Positions 1 to 7,301 of a DNA stretch of 10,494 nucleotides are shown piece after piece. Within the stretch, counting starts at the first letter, position 1. Each line of letters starts with the position of its first letter. The stretch is from a virus. The notes beneath the pieces are model-generated. The model was not told where the DNA came from, made no database searches, and was given only the letters and a program-made list of their open reading frames with translations. A program made the position numbers and the translations under genes. The DNA lies in UHGV virus genome UHGV-1956501; one strand, given 5' to 3'.

Positions 1-96
1 AGTATATTCTACATAAGTTAAGTATATGTACTTAGTACCATAAGTACTAGATCTTTTATTTTTTATTATTTAGTTATTTTAGTTATATTCTTTATG

Positions 97-177
97 TGTC
101 CGTATCACGGACAGTTGGTGTCCGTATTACGGACAGATGTGTCCGCGTGACGGACAGTAGTGTCCGTATCACGGACA
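97..177. repeat. Four tandem 17-bp palindromes TGTCCG-N5-CGGACA (97-113, 119-135, 140-156, 161-177), phased 21-22 bp; candidate operator/iteron array
   Basis: Read directly: TGTCCGtatcaCGGACA, TGTCCGtattaCGGACA, TGTCCGcgtgaCGGACA, TGTCCGtatcaCGGACA. Arms are perfect reverse complements; start-to-start spacing 22, 21, 21 bp (about two helical turns). Sits beside an AT-rich tract (40-95) with TAGTTAT direct repeats. Confidence 0.85.
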
Positions 178-252
178 GTTAATAGTATCTGTTCTAGAGC
201 GAACATAAAACATACGAATCCTTATAGTACAGATATTTAAGTTTTTACTGGT

Positions 253-603
253 CTAACCAGTTGTTGACATTCGAATAACCTCTTCTGGTGGCAAAACTTT
301 GGAAAATGTGCATCTTTTACCTCTCCCTTGTGTGGATATTTCAACCACTCCTGCACATTCTAAAGTTTTAACGCACGCTGCTGCTTTTGTTTTCTTTATC
401 CCAACATCTGCTGCAATTTTCCTTGTGCTGGGTGTGAAGCGTGAATTTCCTCCAAGCTTGTACCAGTTGTGCAGGTAGCAGTATACGATCTTGTCATATA
501 AGTCAAGAACAACAACCTCCCCAGTTGTGTCATTCAAAACTTTTGACATAGACAGTATTTCAAGGGGGACTTTAAGATATAGCAGCTTATCCCCATCTTT
601 CAT
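253..603 (-). CDS. Hypothetical small protein, possible helix-turn-helix DNA-binding protein
   Basis: 116-aa ORF with ATG start and AGGAG Shine-Dalgarno just upstream on the minus strand; no competing plus-strand ORF. Segment FTPSTRKIAADVGIKKTKAAACVKTLECAGVV looks HTH-like. Function is inference only. Confidence 0.55.
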   Translation of the reverse strand: MKDGDKLLYLKVPLEILSMSKVLNDTTGEVVVLDLYDKIVYCYLHNWYKLGGNSRFTPSTRKIAADVGIKKTKAAACVKTLECAGVVEISTQGRGKRCTFSKVLPPEEVIRMSTTG

Positions 604-650
604 ATCTCCTGATTCTCCTTGTGTGGCAATTTTCTTTAAAATAGCAGGGA

Positions 651-1226
651 TTACTCCCCGCTGTCAATAGCAAGACTCATTGCAATACGGTATGCCTCTT
701 CTAATGGTAAGAGTCTCCCCCACACATCCCAACCGACATCAAACTGCCTGCCAAACAACTGCTGTGTGGTTCCGTGAGCATGACCGAACAGTTGGACTGA
801 TCCGTGAGGCTTTCTGTTCCACTTTGCAAACTGGTAATGGCTCATACAGATCAAATTCTTGTTGTGGCGAAGCTCGTAATAATCTACAACCTCATGACCG
901 AACTCTTTCATAATTCTGACAGTCGTCCTTGTGTCATGGTTGCCACGAACAAGAATAATATGCCCGTTCAACATATTTAGAATATCTGGAAGTAAGTTGT
1001 TGATATTCTTATCATTAGTGCACGCAATATCTCCCAGGTGGAACACAGTGTCTGCAGGTGACACAACAGAGTTCCACTCGGTGATGATTCCCGCATTCAT
1101 ACTGTCAAGATTGTGATCATATTGAGATCTGTGTTTTTGACATGAATCAAACTCCATGACCCGCTGTTGGAGAAAGTGTGTGTCGCTTGTTACAAAGTAT
1201 TTTAATGCAGATGACCTAGTAGACAA
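651..1226 (-). CDS. Calcineurin-like metallophosphoesterase
   Basis: Ordered metallophosphoesterase motifs in the translation: SDTHF (D-x-H), HLGDIA (GD), VRGNHD (GNHD), later His, FGHAHG (GH-x-H). Longest ORF starts at TTG (1224-1226) with no in-frame ATG before motif I, so the start codon is uncertain. Confidence 0.75.
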   Translation of the reverse strand: MSTRSSALKYFVTSDTHFLQQRVMEFDSCQKHRSQYDHNLDSMNAGIITEWNSVVSPADTVFHLGDIACTNDKNINNLLPDILNMLNGHIILVRGNHDTRTTVRIMKEFGHEVVDYYELRHNKNLICMSHYQFAKWNRKPHGSVQLFGHAHGTTQQLFGRQFDVGWDVWGRLLPLEEAYRIAMSLAIDSGE

Positions 1227-2106
1227 AGGTCTTGTAACCAGTCGGTATTATCCAGATCTTGGATTAAAGATCTATAAATATGCCAGAAAAGTATTCTACA
1301 ACAATCTGTGGCATTTGTCTCCGCGTTTACTGGAGTGCCGAGGTATTGTTGTTGGCAATGAGGGGAATGTTGTGGCATGGCCTTTCACAAAAGTATTCAA
1401 CTTAGGAGAAAACTCCACCAACCTACCGGACAGTAAACTTGTTACTGCGGTAGAGAAAAAGAACGGATTCCTTGGTGTGGTGTCATCTCATAAAGGTGAA
1501 CTATTGTTCTCAACAACCGGGTCTCTTGATTCTCCATATTGTAACCTTGCAAAGGAAACCATCCAGGAGCAATGTGGTAATTTAGATCTTATCAAGAAGG
1601 TTATGGGCAATGAAAATATGACATTCATGTTTGAAATTTGTCACCCCTCAGATCCGCATATTGTTCAGGAAGATCATGGCGCATATTTGATAGGTTGCAG
1701 ATATAATGATTCTGGAATAATACTACCAGAAGCAGCTTTAGATGGGATTGCCAAATACCTTGGTGCAAAACGTCCTCACACTGTGCGTGAAATTCCGTTC
1801 AGTTATGCAAAAGAATTAGCTGCAGAAACAAGAGGTGAAGGGTATATGATTCGTAAGCCTTACTACCCTTATGATCTGCAGCTGAAGATTAAGTCTCCAT
1901 ACTATCTGGCACGGAAGGCCGTAATGAGGGGTAAAGCTTGGAAGATTTGGGATGATGATATCTTTAAACGTGTTGACGAAGAGTTTTACGGCATGGTAAA
2001 CTTCATTCGCAACAACTACACAGAGGATGTATGGAACTGCCTCCTGGAGCAGGAACGCCGTGAGATACTTGACTACTATTTCCACAACGAGGACTATATG
2101 CAATGA
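1156..2106 (+). CDS. rnlA: ATP-dependent RNA ligase, T4 Rnl1 (RnlA)-like, with short C-terminal region
   Basis: Nucleotidyltransferase motifs: motif I K-x-N-G (EKKNGFLGVV), motif IV EGYMIRK, motif V LKIKSPYY. N-terminal segments KYFNADDL, LLECRGI and KVFNLGEN match the T4 Rnl1 N-terminus as recalled from memory. ATG 1156 overlaps the divergent phosphoesterase 5' end; GTG 1180 is an alternative start. Confidence 0.75.
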   Translation: MTRCWRKCVSLVTKYFNADDLVDKGLVTSRYYPDLGLKIYKYARKVFYNNLWHLSPRLLECRGIVVGNEGNVVAWPFTKVFNLGENSTNLPDSKLVTAVEKKNGFLGVVSSHKGELLFSTTGSLDSPYCNLAKETIQEQCGNLDLIKKVMGNENMTFMFEICHPSDPHIVQEDHGAYLIGCRYNDSGIILPEAALDGIAKYLGAKRPHTVREIPFSYAKELAAETRGEGYMIRKPYYPYDLQLKIKSPYYLARKAVMRGKAWKIWDDDIFKRVDEEFYGMVNFIRNNYTEDVWNCLLEQERREILDYYFHNEDYMQ

Positions 2107-2453
2107 AGAAGTTGATTGTGTGGCTGGATGACTTGAGAGACCCGTCAAATTATGGGCTCCCAGACGCTATTTGGCTAAAGAATTCCTCCGAGTTTATGGA
2201 TTTTATTAACGATAATAGAAAGCTCTACAGACGCGTTTCTGAGTGGCATATGGACAACGACCTTGGAGAGGTATTAGAAGGGTACGATTGCCTATCTATG
2301 TTGGAGGAAAAATTTGTATTTGGTAAGCCTCCTGTAGTTGACAACGTGAAGATTTTCGTGCATACTTCTAACCCATCAGCTGCTCGTAAATTCATGCTTG
2401 CAGCTGACTCGTTTAAAAAGTTTGGAATAGAGATTAAACAAAACATCTACTGA
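2103..2453 (+). CDS. Hypothetical protein (116 aa); possible CheY-like receiver / flavodoxin-like fold
   Basis: ATG overlaps the upstream stop (ATGA, 2103-2106), suggesting translational coupling. Acidic residues and a Thr/Lys pair at CheY-like spacing (D9 D10, D51/D53, T88, K105/K106); fold assignment is speculative. Confidence 0.6.
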   Translation: MKKLIVWLDDLRDPSNYGLPDAIWLKNSSEFMDFINDNRKLYRRVSEWHMDNDLGEVLEGYDCLSMLEEKFVFGKPPVVDNVKIFVHTSNPSAARKFMLAADSFKKFGIEIKQNIY

Positions 2454-2461
2454 GGACACTT

Positions 2462-3223
2462 ATGCGACGACTTATTATTATCTCCGGTGCTGGTTTGAGC
2501 GCTGAATCTGGTATTCCCACTTTCCGATCTGGTAGCACTGCAATGTGGGAGAATTTCAGCATCGATGAGGTGTGCAACATTCACACCTTTGCCAAGAACT
2601 ACTATAAGGTGCATGACTTTTACAATGCACGTCGTGTAGCTCTAGGCAGTGTTGAGCCTAACCTTGCACATCTTCGGATCGCTGAGTGGTATTCCCGCTG
2701 GTCTGGTCGTGTGATCAACATTACCACCAATGTGGATGATTTGCTGGAGCGTGCTGGTGTAAAACATGAAGATATTTTACATGTCCACGGGTATTTGCCA
2801 GAAATAGTCTATGAGGACGATGAAGGAAGTAACGTCATTAAGGACATTGGATACTCTGAGGTAGATGCAGAAAAGTATACCTGGGTTAAGCCTAATGTGG
2901 TGTTCTTCGGAGAAGTAGCTCCGAAGTATACAGACATGTACGACCTGTTGACTTCCCTTACGAGTAATGATATGGTTATCCTTGTAGGGTGTTCCAACAC
3001 AGTTATCAATTTTAACTGGGAGCTATTCCCTGCCTGCAATAAGGGAACCAAGCTGCTGATCGTTAACAAATACGACTCACAGCATCTAGAGGAGAATGGC
3101 ATTTCACGTAGTGATATTTACCAATATGAGGATCGCGGCATCCCAGTTTGGTTTAACGGGGCGGTTGATGCTTTCTCTGATAAAACATTCATTGAGACCG
3201 TAGAAAACTTTATGGAACTTTAA
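2462..3223 (+). CDS. Sir2-family protein (sirtuin-like NAD-dependent deacylase / ADP-ribosyltransferase / NADase), no zinc ribbon
   Basis: Sirtuin Rossmann motifs: ISGAGLSAESGIPTFRS (GAG-x-S-x-x-SGIP-x-FR), ITTNVDDL (TQN-x-D-x-L-like), LHVHG (catalytic His-Gly), VVFFGE (FGE), ILVGCSNTV. No CxxC...CxxC zinc-binding module is present. Confidence 0.85.
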   Translation: MRRLIIISGAGLSAESGIPTFRSGSTAMWENFSIDEVCNIHTFAKNYYKVHDFYNARRVALGSVEPNLAHLRIAEWYSRWSGRVINITTNVDDLLERAGVKHEDILHVHGYLPEIVYEDDEGSNVIKDIGYSEVDAEKYTWVKPNVVFFGEVAPKYTDMYDLLTSLTSNDMVILVGCSNTVINFNWELFPACNKGTKLLIVNKYDSQHLEENGISRSDIYQYEDRGIPVWFNGAVDAFSDKTFIETVENFMEL

Positions 3224-3236
3224 AAGGAGACCTTTA

Positions 3237-3950
3237 ATGCTGAATACCAAATTAATTGACAACCTGGAAAAACTGTCCCAACCTGAAAACTACCTTTGGT
3301 CTGCCAACTGGGTGGAAAACTGGAACCGTGTGGCAGCTAAAGTGAAAAAATCATACACACCATTCGAATTACAGCTTAGCTTCATTGAGGAAGAGTTCAA
3401 TGAAGTTTTGGAAGAGCTGGAGAAAGGTGATGGTGGAGATCACCTGCTAAAAGAGGCCTGCGATCTTCACGTTGTCACAAGTTATGCCGCTTATCTTGTT
3501 AATGATAATCACGAAAAGTGGTCAAACCTGTTTGATAATCCACGAGGCCTTAAGTTCAAGATCGGTGAGTTCTATGATACCCTGATCGCTGCGAAAAACA
3601 CCTCCAAGCAAAAAGCGTCCGCTTACCGCTTAGCAGAGTTGTCAACAGCTTTGCTGTTCCAGCTTCGCGGCGATGTGTGCGGGATGATGCGTAAGGTTCT
3701 CAAATCGAATGACAGCAAGTTTGCACGGGTCAACCATCTACGGTATTCACACGGTGCCAGTGCAGATATGCCTGCTGAACAACTCATCGAGTTGGAGATT
3801 AAAGATCTTGAGCGGCGCTTTGATGGTCGATATGAAGGTTTTGTTGCTAAGGAAGAATTCTACAACGGTAATAAAGTTATCATATTCCTTGACAGTAAAG
3901 GTAAGATCATGAAGCCTTCGAGCTTCAAGGATGTAACAGAGTATATTTAA
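3237..3950 (+). CDS. Hypothetical protein; possible all-alpha NTP pyrophosphohydrolase (MazG/HisE-like) N-terminal domain
   Basis: AGGAG Shine-Dalgarno (3225-3229) before ATG 3237. Acidic helix pattern SFIEEEFNEVLEELEKGDGGDHLLKEACDLHVV resembles the E-x-x-E...E-x-x-D metal-binding helices of MazG-like enzymes; assignment is tentative. Confidence 0.5.
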   Translation: MLNTKLIDNLEKLSQPENYLWSANWVENWNRVAAKVKKSYTPFELQLSFIEEEFNEVLEELEKGDGGDHLLKEACDLHVVTSYAAYLVNDNHEKWSNLFDNPRGLKFKIGEFYDTLIAAKNTSKQKASAYRLAELSTALLFQLRGDVCGMMRKVLKSNDSKFARVNHLRYSHGASADMPAEQLIELEIKDLERRFDGRYEGFVAKEEFYNGNKVIIFLDSKGKIMKPSSFKDVTEYI

Positions 3951-3956
3951 CAACAT

Positions 3957-3985
3957 AGCCGGGATTACCCGGCTTTACTTGTTGT
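3957..3985 (+). terminator. Putative rho-independent terminator
   Basis: GC-rich hairpin AGCCGGG-atta-CCCGGCT (7-bp stem, 4-nt loop, 3957-3974) followed by T-rich TTACTTGTTGT, directly after the 3237..3950 stop. Confidence 0.5.
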
Positions 3986-4013
3986 GGAAAGTATGCAAGT
4001 GAGGAAGATAGTT

Positions 4014-4322
4014 ATGTACAAGCACTCTAGAGATCTTGAAAACGATGCTGTGTTTGGGGATCAGATGAAAGAGTTGGTTAAACTCATAGGCAGGATAGAG
4101 GATAAGTTTGACACTAAAATCTACATCGACAGCAAAGTATTCAACCACAAAATATGGACAAATCTGTGTGTTGGACTACATGGAGATAAAGATGTGGTAA
4201 ATTTAGTTGTAATTAAGTTCATAGTGTGGCAGAATAAAACTATAAATTATTACGATCCACACCTACTTGTTTACCCGATAAAAGACCTATTAGATAAGGA
4301 GGACTGCAATGCCGTTATTTAA
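4014..4322 (+). CDS. Hypothetical protein
   Basis: Longest ORF starts at GTG 3984; in-frame ATGs at 3993 and 4014. ATG 4014 has the best Shine-Dalgarno (GAGGAAG, 4001-4007). No recognisable motifs. Confidence 0.45.
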   Translation: MYKHSRDLENDAVFGDQMKELVKLIGRIEDKFDTKIYIDSKVFNHKIWTNLCVGLHGDKDVVNLVVIKFIVWQNKTINYYDPHLLVYPIKDLLDKEDCNAVI

Positions 4323-4578: not shown

Positions 4579-5861
4579 TGCATCAAATCAAAACAACACT
4601 GTACGCACTGAATAAAGATGGCAGCTACCAACAGTGGAAAGTATTCACGGATGGTGATAAGGTTATCGTAGAGTTTGGCAAGCTTGATGGTAAACTGCAA
4701 TACAAAGAGACGATCTGCACACCTAAGAACGTTGGTCGCGCCAATGAAACTACAGCTGAGCAACAGGCCGAGCTGGAAGCGATCAGTAAGTGGGAAAAAC
4801 AGGTCCGACTTGGGTACGTGGAGAGTATGGAAGATTGTGAGCAAGGTGTTGATCTTCTACCCATGTTGGTGCATGACTACCTGAAGCGTGGCAAGGCACT
4901 TAAATTACCTTGCTGGATCTTGCGTAAGTTAGATGGCCTTCGTCTACTTGTTGTTTTCCAGAATGGTGAGCCTAAATTTATTTCCCGTGGTAATAAGTCC
5001 TACCCTATTCAAGGAAAGCTTCTGGAGCAACTTCGCTCTTTCCACCTAACCACCGGGATTAAACAGCTCGACGGAGAGCTCTATATTCATGGTCTTCCTC
5101 TGCAGAAAATAGTGTCTCTTGCTAAACGGTGGCGCACACAGGAAGAAATTCAGGCCGAGATCGATAAAGACTACAAGGCAGATAAAAAACGCCGTCAGGC
5201 TGCGATTAAGGCAGGTTTAGCAACATACAAAAACTTCAACAAGATGGACATTCCTGTTGATGTTGAGCCTGTTCGTGATGATTTGCGTTACGGAGGGTAC
5301 TGCAGCTACGATCTGGAGTATCACATTTTTGATATTCCTAGCGACAAGGTGTGGTGGGATCCAGAAACAGAGTCTGGACGCTGCAAGGATCTTATGGATG
5401 CAGAGGATACCGTTACCACTCTGATGCTTGACCATATCAAGGTTGTTGACGCAGAGCTTGCGTACACAGTTGATCATTGCGAAGAATCTGTTGGTATATT
5501 CATGTCCGAAGGATATGAAGGTACTATCATGCGTAATTTCTGCGGTAAATACGAGTACGGTCAGCGAACATCTGAAGCATTGAAATGGAAAAAGTTCAAC
5601 GACGCAGAGGTGAAAGTTATTGACGTTGAGAAAGATAAGAATGACGAAGGTGTTCTTATCTGTGTTGACAAGGAAGGTGTTGTTGTTAAAATGAAGATGA
5701 AAGGTACGCACGAGGAGCGTAGCTATGACAGGATGCAGGAAATGATCGGAAAGTTCGTCACCTTCAAATATCAAGCAAGGACAGAAGACAACAACTACCA
5801 ATTCCCTGTCGGTATCTGCGTCCGAAATGTTAACCCAGATACTTGGGAGGTTCTGGAATGA
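4578..5861 (+). CDS. ATP-dependent DNA ligase with about 115-aa N-terminal extension
   Basis: Covalent nucleotidyltransferase motifs in order: motif I ILRKLDGLRLLVV (K-x-D-G-x-R) with downstream ISRGNK, motif III LDGELYIHG, motif IV EGTIMRN, motif V LKWKKF, C-terminal OB-like region. ATG overlaps upstream stop (TAATG). Confidence 0.8.
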   Translation: MHQIKTTLYALNKDGSYQQWKVFTDGDKVIVEFGKLDGKLQYKETICTPKNVGRANETTAEQQAELEAISKWEKQVRLGYVESMEDCEQGVDLLPMLVHDYLKRGKALKLPCWILRKLDGLRLLVVFQNGEPKFISRGNKSYPIQGKLLEQLRSFHLTTGIKQLDGELYIHGLPLQKIVSLAKRWRTQEEIQAEIDKDYKADKKRRQAAIKAGLATYKNFNKMDIPVDVEPVRDDLRYGGYCSYDLEYHIFDIPSDKVWWDPETESGRCKDLMDAEDTVTTLMLDHIKVVDAELAYTVDHCEESVGIFMSEGYEGTIMRNFCGKYEYGQRTSEALKWKKFNDAEVKVIDVEKDKNDEGVLICVDKEGVVVKMKMKGTHEERSYDRMQEMIGKFVTFKYQARTEDNNYQFPVGICVRNVNPDTWEVLE

Positions 5862-5987
5862 TGTAGGAAGGTTTAGTAGGTAACGGTAGCCAATTGAATG
5901 ATGGTTTTTCAAAATTGTCACCTATATAACCACACTATGCAGTGTTGTTGATCTGGTTAATTATGAGTAAACTGGAGAGTATGAAAA

Positions 5988-6485
5988 ATGAAACTTGATA
6001 AAAATGTTCAACGAAAAGCTTTCTTGGATCTTATTGGCTGGGCAGAGGGAACAACAACCCCCCCTGCCACCAAATGTGGAGGATACGATGTTGTAGCATA
6101 CGGGATGGACGGAAAACCTGAAATCTTTACAGATTTTTCTACGCACCCTTTTGCAAACGGTCGCCCTGGTAAAGTGTTTAACTCAAAAGGGCAAAGAACT
6201 ACAGCCTGCGGTAAATATCAATTTCTTGTCAAATACTGGGAACACTACAAAAAACAGCTTAAGTTGCCGGATTTTGGACCAGACAGTCAGGATAAGTGGG
6301 CGATCCAGTTGATCAGGGAACGTAAAGCACTTGAAGATATAGATAACGGTCATATTAAATCTGCTATACGTAAGACCTCAAATATTTGGGCTTCGTTCCC
6401 CTACAACCAGTACGACCAAAATCCAAAAACCATTGACAAGTTGCTTAAGAAATTTGTAGAGTTTGGAGGTGTTGTTCTGGATTAA
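5988..6485 (+). CDS. Endolysin, lambda R-type lytic transglycosylase
   Basis: Near-collinear matches to lambda R as recalled: QRKAFLD, GWAEGT, GYDV, FTDFS-HP, GKYQF, YWEHYKKQLKLPDFGPDSQD, IRERKAL, SNIWASFP, FGG. GGAGA Shine-Dalgarno 8 nt before ATG. Confidence 0.9.
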   Translation: MKLDKNVQRKAFLDLIGWAEGTTTPPATKCGGYDVVAYGMDGKPEIFTDFSTHPFANGRPGKVFNSKGQRTTACGKYQFLVKYWEHYKKQLKLPDFGPDSQDKWAIQLIRERKALEDIDNGHIKSAIRKTSNIWASFPYNQYDQNPKTIDKLLKKFVEFGGVVLD

Positions 6486-6539: not shown

Positions 6540-7301
6540 ATGACGATACATTTCTTTTTCAATGATCACTACCCTTATTGGTACAAGGATGGTGATCTAA
6601 TCTTTTGGAAACCTGGCTGCAGTAGGAATGGAAATAGGGCTGGACACTACAACAAAAAGACTGGATATTTCCAAGTGTACAATAAGCTGACAAATGTTAA
6701 ACGTGGCAGACATAGGGAAATTTTTGACATGTTTTACGGATGTGTCACAGATACTTGGCATATTGATCATATTATCTCTAAGAAAAATTCTACTAACGGA
6801 GTGCCTGTAGACAAGATAGAAAACCTTCAAATGTTGAAGCCTTGGGATAACTACTGTAAGAGAGCCTTGGAAAATGTGCAAAGCAATAACACCTCTACAG
6901 TGACTGGTGTGGTATGGCTGAAAAGAGAGGGTAAGTGGAGGGCAAGTAGAAGGATAAATAGGGTAAATGTTAGGTTGGGAGATTTTGACACTTTCGAAGA
7001 GGCTAAGTCTAGGGTTGAATGGTCAATAGCCAACCCGGAAGAGGCTTTAAAGATAGTTCCAAACCCGCACAAGAATAATATCCTGCCAGGTATTGATTGG
7101 TCTAAGAAAGATACCTGTTGGAGGGCACGAGATAACAAAGGAAGAAACTTAAGGTGCTTCAACGACAGGAAGTGGCTAAACCCCTGGTGGGAGGCAGTTT
7201 GTGCAAGAAAGTCTTGGGAAGTAAACTGTCTCTACGGAGGAATGTCACTAACTGAGTGGAAGTTATCCAGAGGCTATCCAAGACCTTGTGTTGAGGATTG
7301 A
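6540..7301 (+). CDS. HNH homing endonuclease with AP2-type DNA-binding domain (free-standing)
   Basis: HNH core WHIDHIISKKNSTNGVPVDKIENLQMLKPWDN (H...N...N). Downstream AP2-like segment TGVVWLKREGKWRASRRINRVNVRLGDFDTFEEAKSRV. Inserted between endolysin and the next lysis-region gene, typical of mobile phage homing endonucleases. Confidence 0.85.
   Translation: MTIHFFFNDHYPYWYKDGDLIFWKPGCSRNGNRAGHYNKKTGYFQVYNKLTNVKRGRHREIFDMFYGCVTDTWHIDHIISKKNSTNGVPVDKIENLQMLKPWDNYCKRALENVQSNNTSTVTGVVWLKREGKWRASRRINRVNVRLGDFDTFEEAKSRVEWSIANPEEALKIVPNPHKNNILPGIDWSKKDTCWRARDNKGRNLRCFNDRKWLNPWWEAVCARKSWEVNCLYGGMSLTEWKLSRGYPRPCVED

Follow-up and report, generated by a model that had tools for sequence, protein, structure and literature searches.

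The window, a 10,494-nucleotide stretch of DNA from the virus genome UHGV-1956501, contains two divergent reading frames that overlap at their 5' ends. Both are present as listed in the initial annotation, one on the minus strand at 651 to 1226, coding for 191 amino acids from a TTG start, and the other on the plus strand at 1156 to 2106, coding for 316 amino acids from an ATG start and sharing 71 nucleotides with the first. The minus-strand frame codes for a metallophosphoesterase, with motif I (D-T-H) specified by GACACACAC on that strand at 1176 to 1184, and the plus-strand frame codes for an RNA ligase, with KYFNADDL at 1195 to 1218 (AAG TAT TTT AAT GCA GAT GAC CTA); both positions agree with those first reported. 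No in-frame ATG lies 5' of motif I in the phosphoesterase frame, the sole one being codon 24, past the motif. The ligase is followed on the plus strand by a cREC (cyclic-phosphate-processing receiver) gene at 2103 to 2453 (Pfam cREC_REC, 1.3e-14), the start of which overlaps the ligase stop by 4 nucleotides, and then by a Sir2-family gene at 2462 to 3223 (Pfam SIR2, 1e-27). A consensus scan revealed a retained sigma-70-like promoter on the minus strand at 638 to 667 (TTGACA, an 18-nucleotide spacer, and TATTTT with a TG extension), which corresponds to P76 of rV5, annotated at the equivalent place. Located within the 3'-terminal part of the phosphoesterase gene, it would drive an HTH gene farther downstream (253 to 603) and not the phosphoesterase. 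Over its full length the window is 95 to 97% identical to more than 100 Vequintavirus (rV5-like) genomes in GenBank and, at this level of identity, is a segment of an rV5-like Escherichia coli phage.

Comparison with Shigella phage CM1 (L001) yielded two collinear blocks. Window positions 1 to 1202 correspond to CM1 3001 to 4202, and positions 1195 to 2600 correspond to CM1 4748 to 6153; the two blocks share 8 bp, and 553 bp of the CM1 sequence is missing from the window. The shared 8 bp (1195 to 1202) is the single kept copy of a direct repeat, AAGTATTT, through which the window aligns to both CM1 flanks, and in junction alignments with CM1 and rV5 the switch point falls at this octamer. In CM1, one copy (4195 to 4202) adjoins the CAT of the phosphoesterase start and the other (4748 to 4755) lies just past the ligase ATG; the M-K-Y-F beginning common to the two proteins accounts for this repeat, which stands in direct orientation a short way into each gene. 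The boundaries were identical across the seven relatives compared base by base. When a 201-nucleotide query spanning the junction was searched against phage records, the best 60 all matched in two pieces spanning 751 to 754 nucleotides; none matched contiguously, and all carried the 553 bp between the flanks. A 25-mer covering the junction was absent from 50,697 phage records.

The window retains the phosphoesterase gene (rV5 ORF80/CM1_00073) as codons 2 to 184 plus the stop, on the minus strand at 651 to 1202, without its ATG, Shine-Dalgarno site, or promoters. This remnant is gap free and 97 to 98% identical to the phosphoesterase coding sequences of seven relatives, and it stops exactly one codon before their ATG. 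The ligase gene (rV5 ORF82/CM1_00075) is likewise retained as codons 2 to 304 plus the stop, on the plus strand at 1195 to 2106, without its native ATG, Shine-Dalgarno site, or upstream intergenic region, and from codon 2 onward it is gap free and 95.6 to 97.6% identical to the ligase coding sequences of six relatives. From the collinearity of 1 to 1202 and 1195 to 2600 with CM1, it follows that the native N termini abut at the 8 bp of shared sequence at 1195 to 1202; the initial reading of a genuine overlap between N-terminal coding regions was not confirmed. No conservation of the overlap was found in related genomes, the junction being present in 0 of the 60 best-matching phage records. Deletion via another short repeat, TTTAATGCAG, was also considered and rejected, as it would have retained the phosphoesterase ATG, which is absent from the window. 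There are no frameshifts in the remnant frames and only five private substitutions, two of them nonsynonymous, which argues that the deletion is recent; five is too few to test for relaxed selection.

The apparent 5' overlap arises because each remnant frame stays open for a few codons across sequence antisense to the other. The phosphoesterase frame gains an 8-codon 5' extension (1203 to 1226, minus strand) to the TTG at 1226, antisense to ligase codons 4 to 11; these bases align with the 5' coding region of the ligase in CM1 and rV5 and not with any sequence upstream of a phosphoesterase. Read on the minus strand, no Shine-Dalgarno-like sequence was seen 5' of this TTG. The ligase frame gains a 13-codon extension (1156 to 1194, plus strand), antisense to phosphoesterase codons 5 to 17; CM1 and rV5 have the same bases, there lying opposite the phosphoesterase N terminus. 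The ATG at 1156 has no Shine-Dalgarno site, and the GTG at 1180 is preceded by GGAG at 1169 to 1172, 7 nucleotides upstream. On alignment, both extensions are fortuitous open frame of the length that chance gives. The gene caller of an ENA assembly took the GTG start, giving a ligase product of 308 amino acids. In a product look-up, this version and a 168-residue gene-caller version of the phosphoesterase from the internal ATG were found, and the 316-residue (ATG) ligase and the 191-residue (TTG) phosphoesterase matched no record. The statement that TTG is the longest phosphoesterase start is literally correct, but its cause is the deletion of the native ATG.

The 553-bp segment of the relatives contains the phosphoesterase ATG, the ligase ATG, both ribosome-binding sites, a gene for a 136-residue polynucleotide-kinase-like protein, and a 121-bp divergent intergenic region. 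Promoter P80 of the rV5 annotation also lies within it, and further promoter-like sites are found in the intergenic region; the Vequintavirus promoters of rV5-like phages are predictions only. The native start codon, ribosome-binding site, and promoter of both genes are all inside the missing 553 bp, and the suggestion of promoters and ribosome sites lying within the opposite gene was not confirmed. The 136-residue protein is annotated as an ATPase or polynucleotide kinase and matches Pfam AAA_33 (7.9e-11) and PHROG 505, polynucleotide kinase (8e-10). The family shows no variation in its P-loop, GxxGxGK(S/T), or in D35, the catalytic Asp after strand 2. A single-sequence phmmer search of the PDB gave no meaningful match, and a family profile was required; this profile matched Pnkp1, T4 Pnk, and CthPnk at 4e-5 to 1e-3. 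An AF2 model (pLDDT 90.7) gave T4 Pnk (1LY1) and CthPnk as the best Foldseek matches, with TM scores of 0.71 to 0.77; the top entries, 1LY1 and 4JT2, scored 0.71 to 0.74. By profile and model, the deleted gene resembles polynucleotide 5'-kinases of the T4 Pnk/CthPnk type. This gene is absent from the window; the earlier remark that no 5'-kinase is visible there was literally true, but only because the kinase gene has been deleted.

The phosphoesterase matches Pfam Metallophos and Metallophos_2 above threshold and PHROG 547, phosphoesterase, at 1.7e-50. All five motifs of the family (DxH, GD, GNH(D/E), H, and GHxH) are present in the window protein, and all 51 sequences of a family alignment share the corresponding residues (D7, H9, G57-D58, G87-N88-H89, H122, and G140-H141-x-H143); D7 and H9 belong to the motif I that is read directly at 1176 to 1184. 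The profile match and the five invariant motifs bear out the calcineurin-type identity first assigned to this protein. Family members typically start 5 to 8 residues before DxH. One private substitution changes the second His of DTHFxH to Gln (CAC to CAA; 1167 to 1169, minus strand); the codon is CAC in seven of seven close relatives, and 48 of the 51 aligned family members have His at this position. A close relationship to the Pnkp/lambda-phosphatase healing domain was not supported, the nearest solved relative being the uncharacterized Aquifex protein Aq_1665 (1XM7). At E <= 0.01, the family profile retrieved from the PDB Aq_1665 at 1e-30, followed by GpdQ-like phosphohydrolases, YfcE, and others, with neither lambda phosphatase nor a Pnkp phosphatase domain among these matches. 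An RNA-end substrate for the phosphoesterase is predicted only from its genomic linkage to the ligase and kinase.

The ligase was matched by Pfam RNA_lig_T4_1 (PF09511) at 1.6e-14, its 54.7 bits exceeding the gathering score of 28.3. The NCBIfam equivalog model TIGR02308 gave 37.7 bits against a cutoff of 242.25. On these scores, the protein is a member of the Rnl1 family and not an equivalog of T4 RnlA. A single-sequence phmmer search of the PDB again gave no meaningful match, and a family profile was needed, which matched T4 Rnl1 (2C5U) at 2.3e-14. Nucleotidyltransferase motif I (K-K-N-G, or KxNG) lies at 1456 to 1467, its first Lys aligned to Lys99 of T4 Rnl1 (rkvnGF with T4 tkedGS), and K88, N90, and G91 are conserved without exception across 48 homologues. 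F146-E147 of motif III, aligned with T4 E159, is invariant in the same 48. Motifs IV (E-G, 1837 to 1842) and V (K-I-K, 1885 to 1893) occupy 1837 to 1893 on the plus strand, with E215, G216, K231, and K233 invariant and aligned with T4 E227-G228 and K240/K242. An AF2 model (pLDDT 90.0, pTM 0.83) had 2C5U as its best Foldseek match (E 3.4e-12), with fungal Trl1 ligase domains next. The profile, the motifs, and the structure model all confirm the T4 Rnl1-like identity originally proposed. The C-terminal domain of T4 Rnl1 found no match in this protein; the profile alignment ends at T4 residue 249, and motif V is followed by only about 65 helical residues, modeled with lower pLDDT. GenBank records also carry a "tail attachment" label for the ligase, which we take to have been transferred from T4 gp63 by homology.

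In all sequenced relatives examined, two units diverge from the 121-bp intergenic region. The leftward unit consists of the polynucleotide-kinase-like gene and then the metallophosphoesterase, and the rightward unit consists of the Rnl1-like ligase, then cREC, and then Sir2. We propose that slippage or illegitimate recombination between the two AAGTATTT copies, mediated by this microhomology, removed everything between them. Such an event would have taken both ATGs, both Shine-Dalgarno sites, the entire kinase gene, the intergenic region, and the internal promoter P80, and would have left two otherwise intact frames fused head to head. We consider it very probable that the head-to-head overlap is a deletion scar in a damaged version of an already known repair module and not a new compact gene design; an arrangement with overlapping 5' ends was found in none of the relatives examined and would be derived.

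In the intact relatives, the module is predicted to repair RNA that nucleases have cut, by healing and sealing its ends. Phosphorylation of the 5'-OH would fall to the kinase, removal of the 2',3'-cyclic phosphate or 3'-phosphate to the phosphoesterase and/or cREC, and sealing via a lysyl-AMP intermediate to the ligase; we infer all of these enzyme activities. In this genome, the 5'-kinase step would be gone, the phosphoesterase would have no usable start 5' of its metal-binding motif I, and the ligase would be without its native promoter and start. Because the kinase and the native expression signals are lost, the module is most likely inactive here, the loss of expression being presumed. It would then be a natural knockout, tolerated on hosts without RNA-cutting defenses, presumably because RNA repair is dispensable on them. 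Some residual expression of the ligase is possible because of the GTG at 1180 with its GGAG and the weak promoter-like sites on the plus strand inside the phosphoesterase remnant (e.g., 931 to 959, with 9 of 12 matches); given a read-through transcript, translation could begin at that GTG. The notion of a healing-and-sealing counterdefense pair is supported in part: an RNA-repair role fits the family context, with kinase and cREC neighbors and the triad in three other lineages, but the copy seen here, having lost its starts, Shine-Dalgarno sites, promoters, and kinase, is likelier to be an inactivated module.

The junction might instead have arisen in vitro or in silico, by template switching in amplification or library preparation or by misassembly, from a natural phage with an intact kinase locus. 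Exact matches to it come solely from metagenome assemblies, one of the scaffolds is chimeric at its far end, where it is joined to unrelated microvirus-like sequence, and exact matches to the 25-mer numbered zero in IMG/VR, JGI metagenomes, and GTDB genomes, in addition to its absence from the phage records. However, three assembled contigs (ENA ERZ28603063 scaffold_840, Logan SRR585750_8526, and ENA ERZ1758141 NODE_2730) match the junction at 100% identity; the contigs may come from a single sequencing run, and since three assemblies with different naming schemes share it, it is probably real DNA. Coverage in one of them (NODE_2730, cov 5.5) is about 5.5-fold, which is not expected of random chimeric reads, and the 8-bp repeat could not cause an assembly collapse because it is far shorter than the k-mer or overlap of any assembler. 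Deletions between short direct repeats are, moreover, a common natural event in phage genomes. We regard an artifact as unlikely.

A still less likely reading is that the two frames form a working compact divergent healing-and-sealing unit, starting at TTG 1226 and at GTG 1180 or ATG 1156, with signals embedded in the opposite genes. Both frames are open and otherwise intact, GGAG precedes GTG 1180 by 7 nucleotides, and promoter-like hexamers occur near the junction on the minus strand (1226 to 1199; TTGTCT, a 16-nucleotide spacer, and TAAAAT) and on the plus strand (931 to 959). These putative signals, however, are antisense sequence already present in the intact relatives, and the arrangement itself is found in this sequence only, derived by deletion. 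Transcripts from the minus-strand site would begin 3' of the TTG, and the resulting protein would lack motif I; the TTG also has no preceding Shine-Dalgarno site. The phosphoesterase also carries its private substitution at a conserved His. Furthermore, an Rnl1-type ligase is unable to seal 5'-OH ends without a kinase. Alternatively, the window might represent the ancestral state, the relatives having gained a 545-bp mobile kinase cassette with an 8-bp target-site duplication. An exact 8-bp direct repeat does bound the extra segment, but the genes on both sides depend on this segment for their start codons and ribosome sites, and neither has a family-typical N terminus without it. The segment contains no transposase or integrase gene and is present in all relatives checked, missing from this sequence only. 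Linkage of its kinase with the ligase and phosphoesterase recurs in distant phages whose gene orders differ. We consider such a gain highly improbable. It seems improbable that the deletion, in place of neutral decay, was an adaptive escape, with loss of the module or silencing of the divergent promoter region selected by a host defense that senses an RNA-repair protein or product, or that the remnant is expressed from GTG/TTG as a kinase-independent pair; were either so, this phage from the wild gut would offer a natural test of when RNA repair benefits or harms a phage.

A single small deletion, in a genus of phages that is well sampled, fully explains the seemingly unusual overlapping design with its "missing" kinase, and the main value of the comparison lies in correcting the overlapping-gene reading. 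The module itself is already known, the window being a broken copy of it. Its reference form is rV5 ORF80-ORF81-ORF82 (phosphoesterase, P-loop kinase, and "RNA ligase 1 and tail attachment protein"), equivalent to CM1_00073-75 and to BASEL bas58_0213-0215, which are labeled "polynucleotide kinase," "RNA ligase," and "putative phosphoresterase." The window shares with the Vequintavirus reference locus the same genes and flanks at 95 to 98% nucleotide identity, as well as the downstream cREC, Sir2, and MazG-like genes, and differs from it in lacking the 553 bp with the kinase, both starts, the ribosome sites, the intergenic region, and P80. Should the source phage be recoverable, it would provide a natural triple knockout for testing the module against tRNA-cutting defenses. 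A literature search on RNA repair, RNA ligase, and phosphoesterase in Vequintavirinae/rV5 returned nothing relevant.

In phage T4, tRNA repair by Pnkp and Rnl1 counters the PrrC anticodon nuclease. The nucleotidyltransferase domain of T4 Rnl1 and its motifs I, III, IV, and V are also found in the window ligase, for which T4 Rnl1 is the top Foldseek match, and in the relatives the kinase has the same fold as the T4 Pnk kinase domain. The ligase is shorter, however (304 versus 374 amino acids), and its motif I is KxNG, compared with KxDG. The T4 C-terminal domain (residues ~255 to 374), which is linked to tRNA specificity, is unmatched because the sequence similarity covers T4 residues 31 to 249 only. 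Unlike T4 Pnkp, the kinase of the relatives is a stand-alone protein of 136 amino acids without a fused HAD 3'-phosphatase, and 3'-end healing would fall to the metallophosphoesterase and/or cREC; in the window the kinase is wholly missing. The combination of a P-loop 5'-kinase, a binuclear metallophosphoesterase, and an ATP-dependent RNA ligase also is found in bacterial Pnkp (Clostridium thermocellum Pnkp-Hen1 and Capnocytophaga Pnkp1-Rnl-Hen1). In contrast to these, the phage proteins are separate and not one polypeptide, there is no Hen1, and the phosphoesterase profile misses the lambda-phosphatase/CthPnkp phosphatase domains at the E value given above.

The comparison points to a conserved four-part set for RNA-end repair in Vequintaviruses and several other phage groups, comprising a Pnk-like kinase, an Aq_1665-type metallophosphoesterase, an Rnl1-like ligase, and cREC, all with predicted activities. 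The operonic linkage of cREC to RNA ligases has been described previously, and cREC was proposed, in a prediction by comparative genomics only, to clear 2',3'-cyclic ends for ATP-dependent RNA ligases (PMC7824862; Iyer et al. 2021). The window resembles the cREC/RNA-ligase/NAD-centered neighborhoods of that study in having cREC directly 3' of an ATP-dependent RNA ligase and beside Sir2, and cREC is predicted to belong to the same RNA-end-processing neighborhood as the ligase. Phapecoctavirus ukendt, Otagovirus phiPsa374, and Klebsiella phage K54_rec1 each carry the phosphoesterase together with the ligase and the kinase, with cREC also linked to the ligase in two of these three lineages (ukendt and K54_rec1). 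In these distant phages the genes are collinear and nonoverlapping and stand in different orders. PHROG 8238 (737 positions) matches the kinase in its N terminus and the ligase in its C-terminal part, from which it follows that kinase-ligase fusions exist.

The initial annotation presented a metallophosphoesterase and an RnlA-like RNA ligase as a divergent pair with overlapping 5' coding regions. The phosphoesterase ORF (651..1226, minus strand, 191 aa, TTG start) and the ligase ORF (1156..2106, plus strand, 316 aa, ATG start) do overlap by 71 nt, and the positions read from the sequence for phosphoesterase motif I (D-T-H, 1176-1184) and for ligase KYFNADDL (1195-1218) were exact. Both gene identities were upheld by Pfam, which assigns Metallophos/Metallophos_2 to the phosphoesterase and RNA_lig_T4_1 (1.6e-14) to the ligase. 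While these sequence facts stand, the head-to-head structure deduced from them does not, because the window carries a 553-bp deletion compared with its relatives.

Megablast returned 127 phage records matching the 10,494-bp window, 110 of which cover at least 80% of it at 90 to 99% identity; the named records are E. coli and Shigella Vequintavirus (rV5-like) myoviruses. The best whole-window matches were all split in two pieces, with record spans ~550 bp longer than the window. Against the Shigella phage CM1 locus (L001), window 1..1202 corresponds to 3001..4202 and window 1195..2600 to 4748..6153, two collinear blocks that share 8 bp and leave out 553 bp of CM1. Identical boundaries, base for base, were obtained with seven relatives. 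No contiguous match was found with a 201-nt junction-centred probe, for which any such match would rank above the 60 best phage records; these aligned in two pieces spanning 751 to 754 nt. The junction alignment showed that in CM1 and rV5 the phosphoesterase starts on the minus strand with ATG AAA TAC TTT, which reads ...AAGTATTT-CAT on the plus strand, and that the ligase starts on the plus strand with ATG-AAGTATTT-T. Since both proteins begin M-K-Y-F, an 8-bp direct repeat, AAGTATTT, lies just inside both genes (L001 4195-4202 and 4748-4755). A single copy is left in the window (1195-1202), and the intervening segment is gone. The overlap consists of sequence that is unchanged in intact relatives: minus-strand 1203-1226, up to the TTG, is antisense of the ligase gene, and plus-strand 1156-1194, with ATG 1156 and GTG 1180, is antisense of the phosphoesterase gene. 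The codons for K-Y-F read almost the same on both strands, hence the direct repeat. Another short repeat, TTTAATGCAG, is shared by the 3' end of the kinase gene and the 5' end of the ligase gene (L001 4222-4231 and 4753-4762), so that the locus is predisposed to such deletion.

The deleted segment holds both ATGs, both Shine-Dalgarno sequences (annotated as ribosome-binding sites in phage Murica), the 121-bp divergent intergenic region, a complete 136-aa gene (CM1_00074/rV5 ORF81), several promoter-like sites and, inside ORF81, the sigma-70 promoter P80, which the rV5 authors assigned to the phosphoesterase. The 136-aa product was assigned to Pfam AAA_33 and to PHROG "polynucleotide kinase," and its profile matched Pnkp1, T4 Pnk and CthPnk. 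In structure comparison, its confident model (pLDDT 90.7) came closest to CthPnk and the kinase domain of T4 Pnk. Polynucleotide kinase is already the label of this gene in several GenBank records.

The exact junction was not found in IMG/VR, JGI metagenomes or GTDB genomes. It is carried, at 100% identity to the window, by all three of the contigs encoding the scar-derived products, a 308-aa ligase (GTG start) and a 168-aa phosphoesterase (internal ATG start): ENA ERZ28603063 scaffold_840 (sample SAMN01760939), Logan SRR585750_8526 and ENA ERZ1758141 NODE_2730 (coverage 5.5). A repeat of only 8 bp is too short to mislead an assembler, and the three pipelines, which may share one read set, agree; the junction was therefore very probably a feature of the DNA that was sequenced. 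The distal end of scaffold_840 is chimeric with microvirus-like sequence. Beyond window position 4921, its positions 4906-5090 are unrelated sequence with ~81% identity to small human-faecal records titled "Bacteriophage sp.", which marks this end as a chimeric join; the sequence hints at a human gut metagenome as the source.

Judged from its sequence, the window is most likely a natural knockout of an RNA-repair module. The kinase gene is absent. Upstream of motif I, the phosphoesterase frame offers no start codon preceded by a ribosome site, and the single promoter-like site close to the new 5' end of the gene (1226..1199) has its predicted transcription start inside the gene. The ligase is without its native ATG, Shine-Dalgarno site and upstream region; a chance GGAG-N7-GTG in front of it (1169-1180) could direct translation only if some transcript crosses this site. 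The cREC, Sir2 and MazG-like genes may also be promoterless after the deletion, unless TTGACA-17-CATACT at 2338-2366 serves Sir2. The promoter at 667..638, which corresponds to rV5 P76 and is predicted to belong to the downstream HTH gene, is retained, so this gene should be unaffected. The HTH protein (253-603, minus strand, 116 aa) matched Pfam DUF6945/HTH_36 just below threshold and PHROG 12838 "replication initiation protein" at 2.5e-80, and is labelled transcriptional regulator, DNA-binding protein or replication initiator across records. The phosphoesterase and ligase remnants carry only five private substitutions, so the deletion is recent. One of the five, a His-to-Gln change at phosphoesterase codon 13 (window 1167-1169), where 48 of 51 family members have His, is compatible with relaxed constraint and is statistically not meaningful.

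In a 48-sequence family alignment, ligase residues K88-x-N-G, F-E147, E215-G216 and K231-x-K233 were invariant; they align with K99, E159, E227/G228 and K240/K242 of T4 Rnl1 (2C5U), which the family profile matched at 2.3e-14. T4 Rnl1 also was the best PDB match of the ligase AlphaFold model (pLDDT 90), followed by fungal Trl1 ligase domains. T4 Rnl1 is longer than the window ligase, and its C-terminal domain is unmatched. An NCBIfam score of 37.7 bits against a cutoff of 242 ruled out the ligase as an equivalog of T4 RnlA. All five metallophosphoesterase motifs were invariant in the phosphoesterase family alignment. Among solved structures, the closest relative is Aquifex Aq_1665 (1XM7, 1e-30), which is uncharacterised, and the profile search did not reach Lambda-phosphatase/Pnkp-type domains. 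Start-codon annotation of both genes is inconsistent across relatives: the ligase is given as 311, 305 or 304 aa (ATGs at -21, -3 or 0; rV5 L003 3125-4060), and the phosphoesterase of phage MiataMamis (L008 1052-1681) is annotated 75 nt longer, overlapping the kinase gene. In Escherichia phage ECML-10, the ligase region (L002 2748-3659) aligns with two gaps, and the ligase and cREC CDS are unannotated. Either sequencing errors or a frameshift in the ligase account for this, and ECML-10 could represent a second, independent inactivation of the module.

Phosphoesterase, ligase and kinase homologues are clustered in three distant phages, Phapecoctavirus ukendt, Otagovirus phiPsa374 and Klebsiella phage K54_rec1, with a cREC homologue in ukendt and K54_rec1; the Vequintavirus gene order differs from theirs. 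Kinase-like and ligase-like regions are fused in PHROG 8238. It has been proposed that cREC clears cyclic phosphate ends for RNA ligases of this sort (PMC7824862). The cREC_REC gene of the window (2103-2453; Pfam 1.3e-14) overlaps the last 4 nt of the ligase ORF, at its stop, and is followed by Sir2 (2462-3223) and the MazG-like pyrophosphohydrolase (3237-3950; PHROG 671); together they form an NAD/cyclic-phosphate-centred neighbourhood like those described in that study. The proposed healing-and-sealing function makes sense at the level of the gene family but is inapplicable to the window copy. T4 Pnkp/Rnl1 and bacterial Pnkp are RNA repair systems, and by analogy with them the intact module most likely restores RNA that host nucleases have cut, and this RNA is probably tRNA. 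In an intact phage, the kinase would create the 5'-phosphate, the phosphoesterase and/or cREC would make the 3'-OH, and the ligase would seal the ends. We found no literature on repair by this module in the Vequintavirus group. T4 pnk and rnlA mutants show that repair is dispensable on hosts without matching nucleases, and on such hosts the knockout would be tolerated. The locus is no departure from known kinds of system.

The gene content of the window agrees with its Vequintavirus assignment and comprises the HTH/replication-initiator-like gene, the metallophosphoesterase, RNA ligase, cREC, Sir2 and MazG-like genes, an ATP-dependent DNA ligase, a lysozyme, HNH-type endonucleases and an exonuclease. 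Between the lysozyme and a small membrane-protein gene lies a 253-aa ORF (6540-7301) with a weak AP2-domain match. It is present in CM1, is not in rV5, where P90/ORF90 directly follows the lysozyme, and is also missing from relatives covering only 88 to 89% of the window; the ORF resembles a mobile insertion of the homing-endonuclease type. About 20 UNVERIFIED GenBank "Campylobacter phage" records (MG0656xx, e.g., MG065655.1), with C. jejuni as host, are 95 to 97% identical to E. coli rV5-like phages and are classified by NCBI as Vequintavirus; probably, either the host label is wrong or the phages are contaminants.
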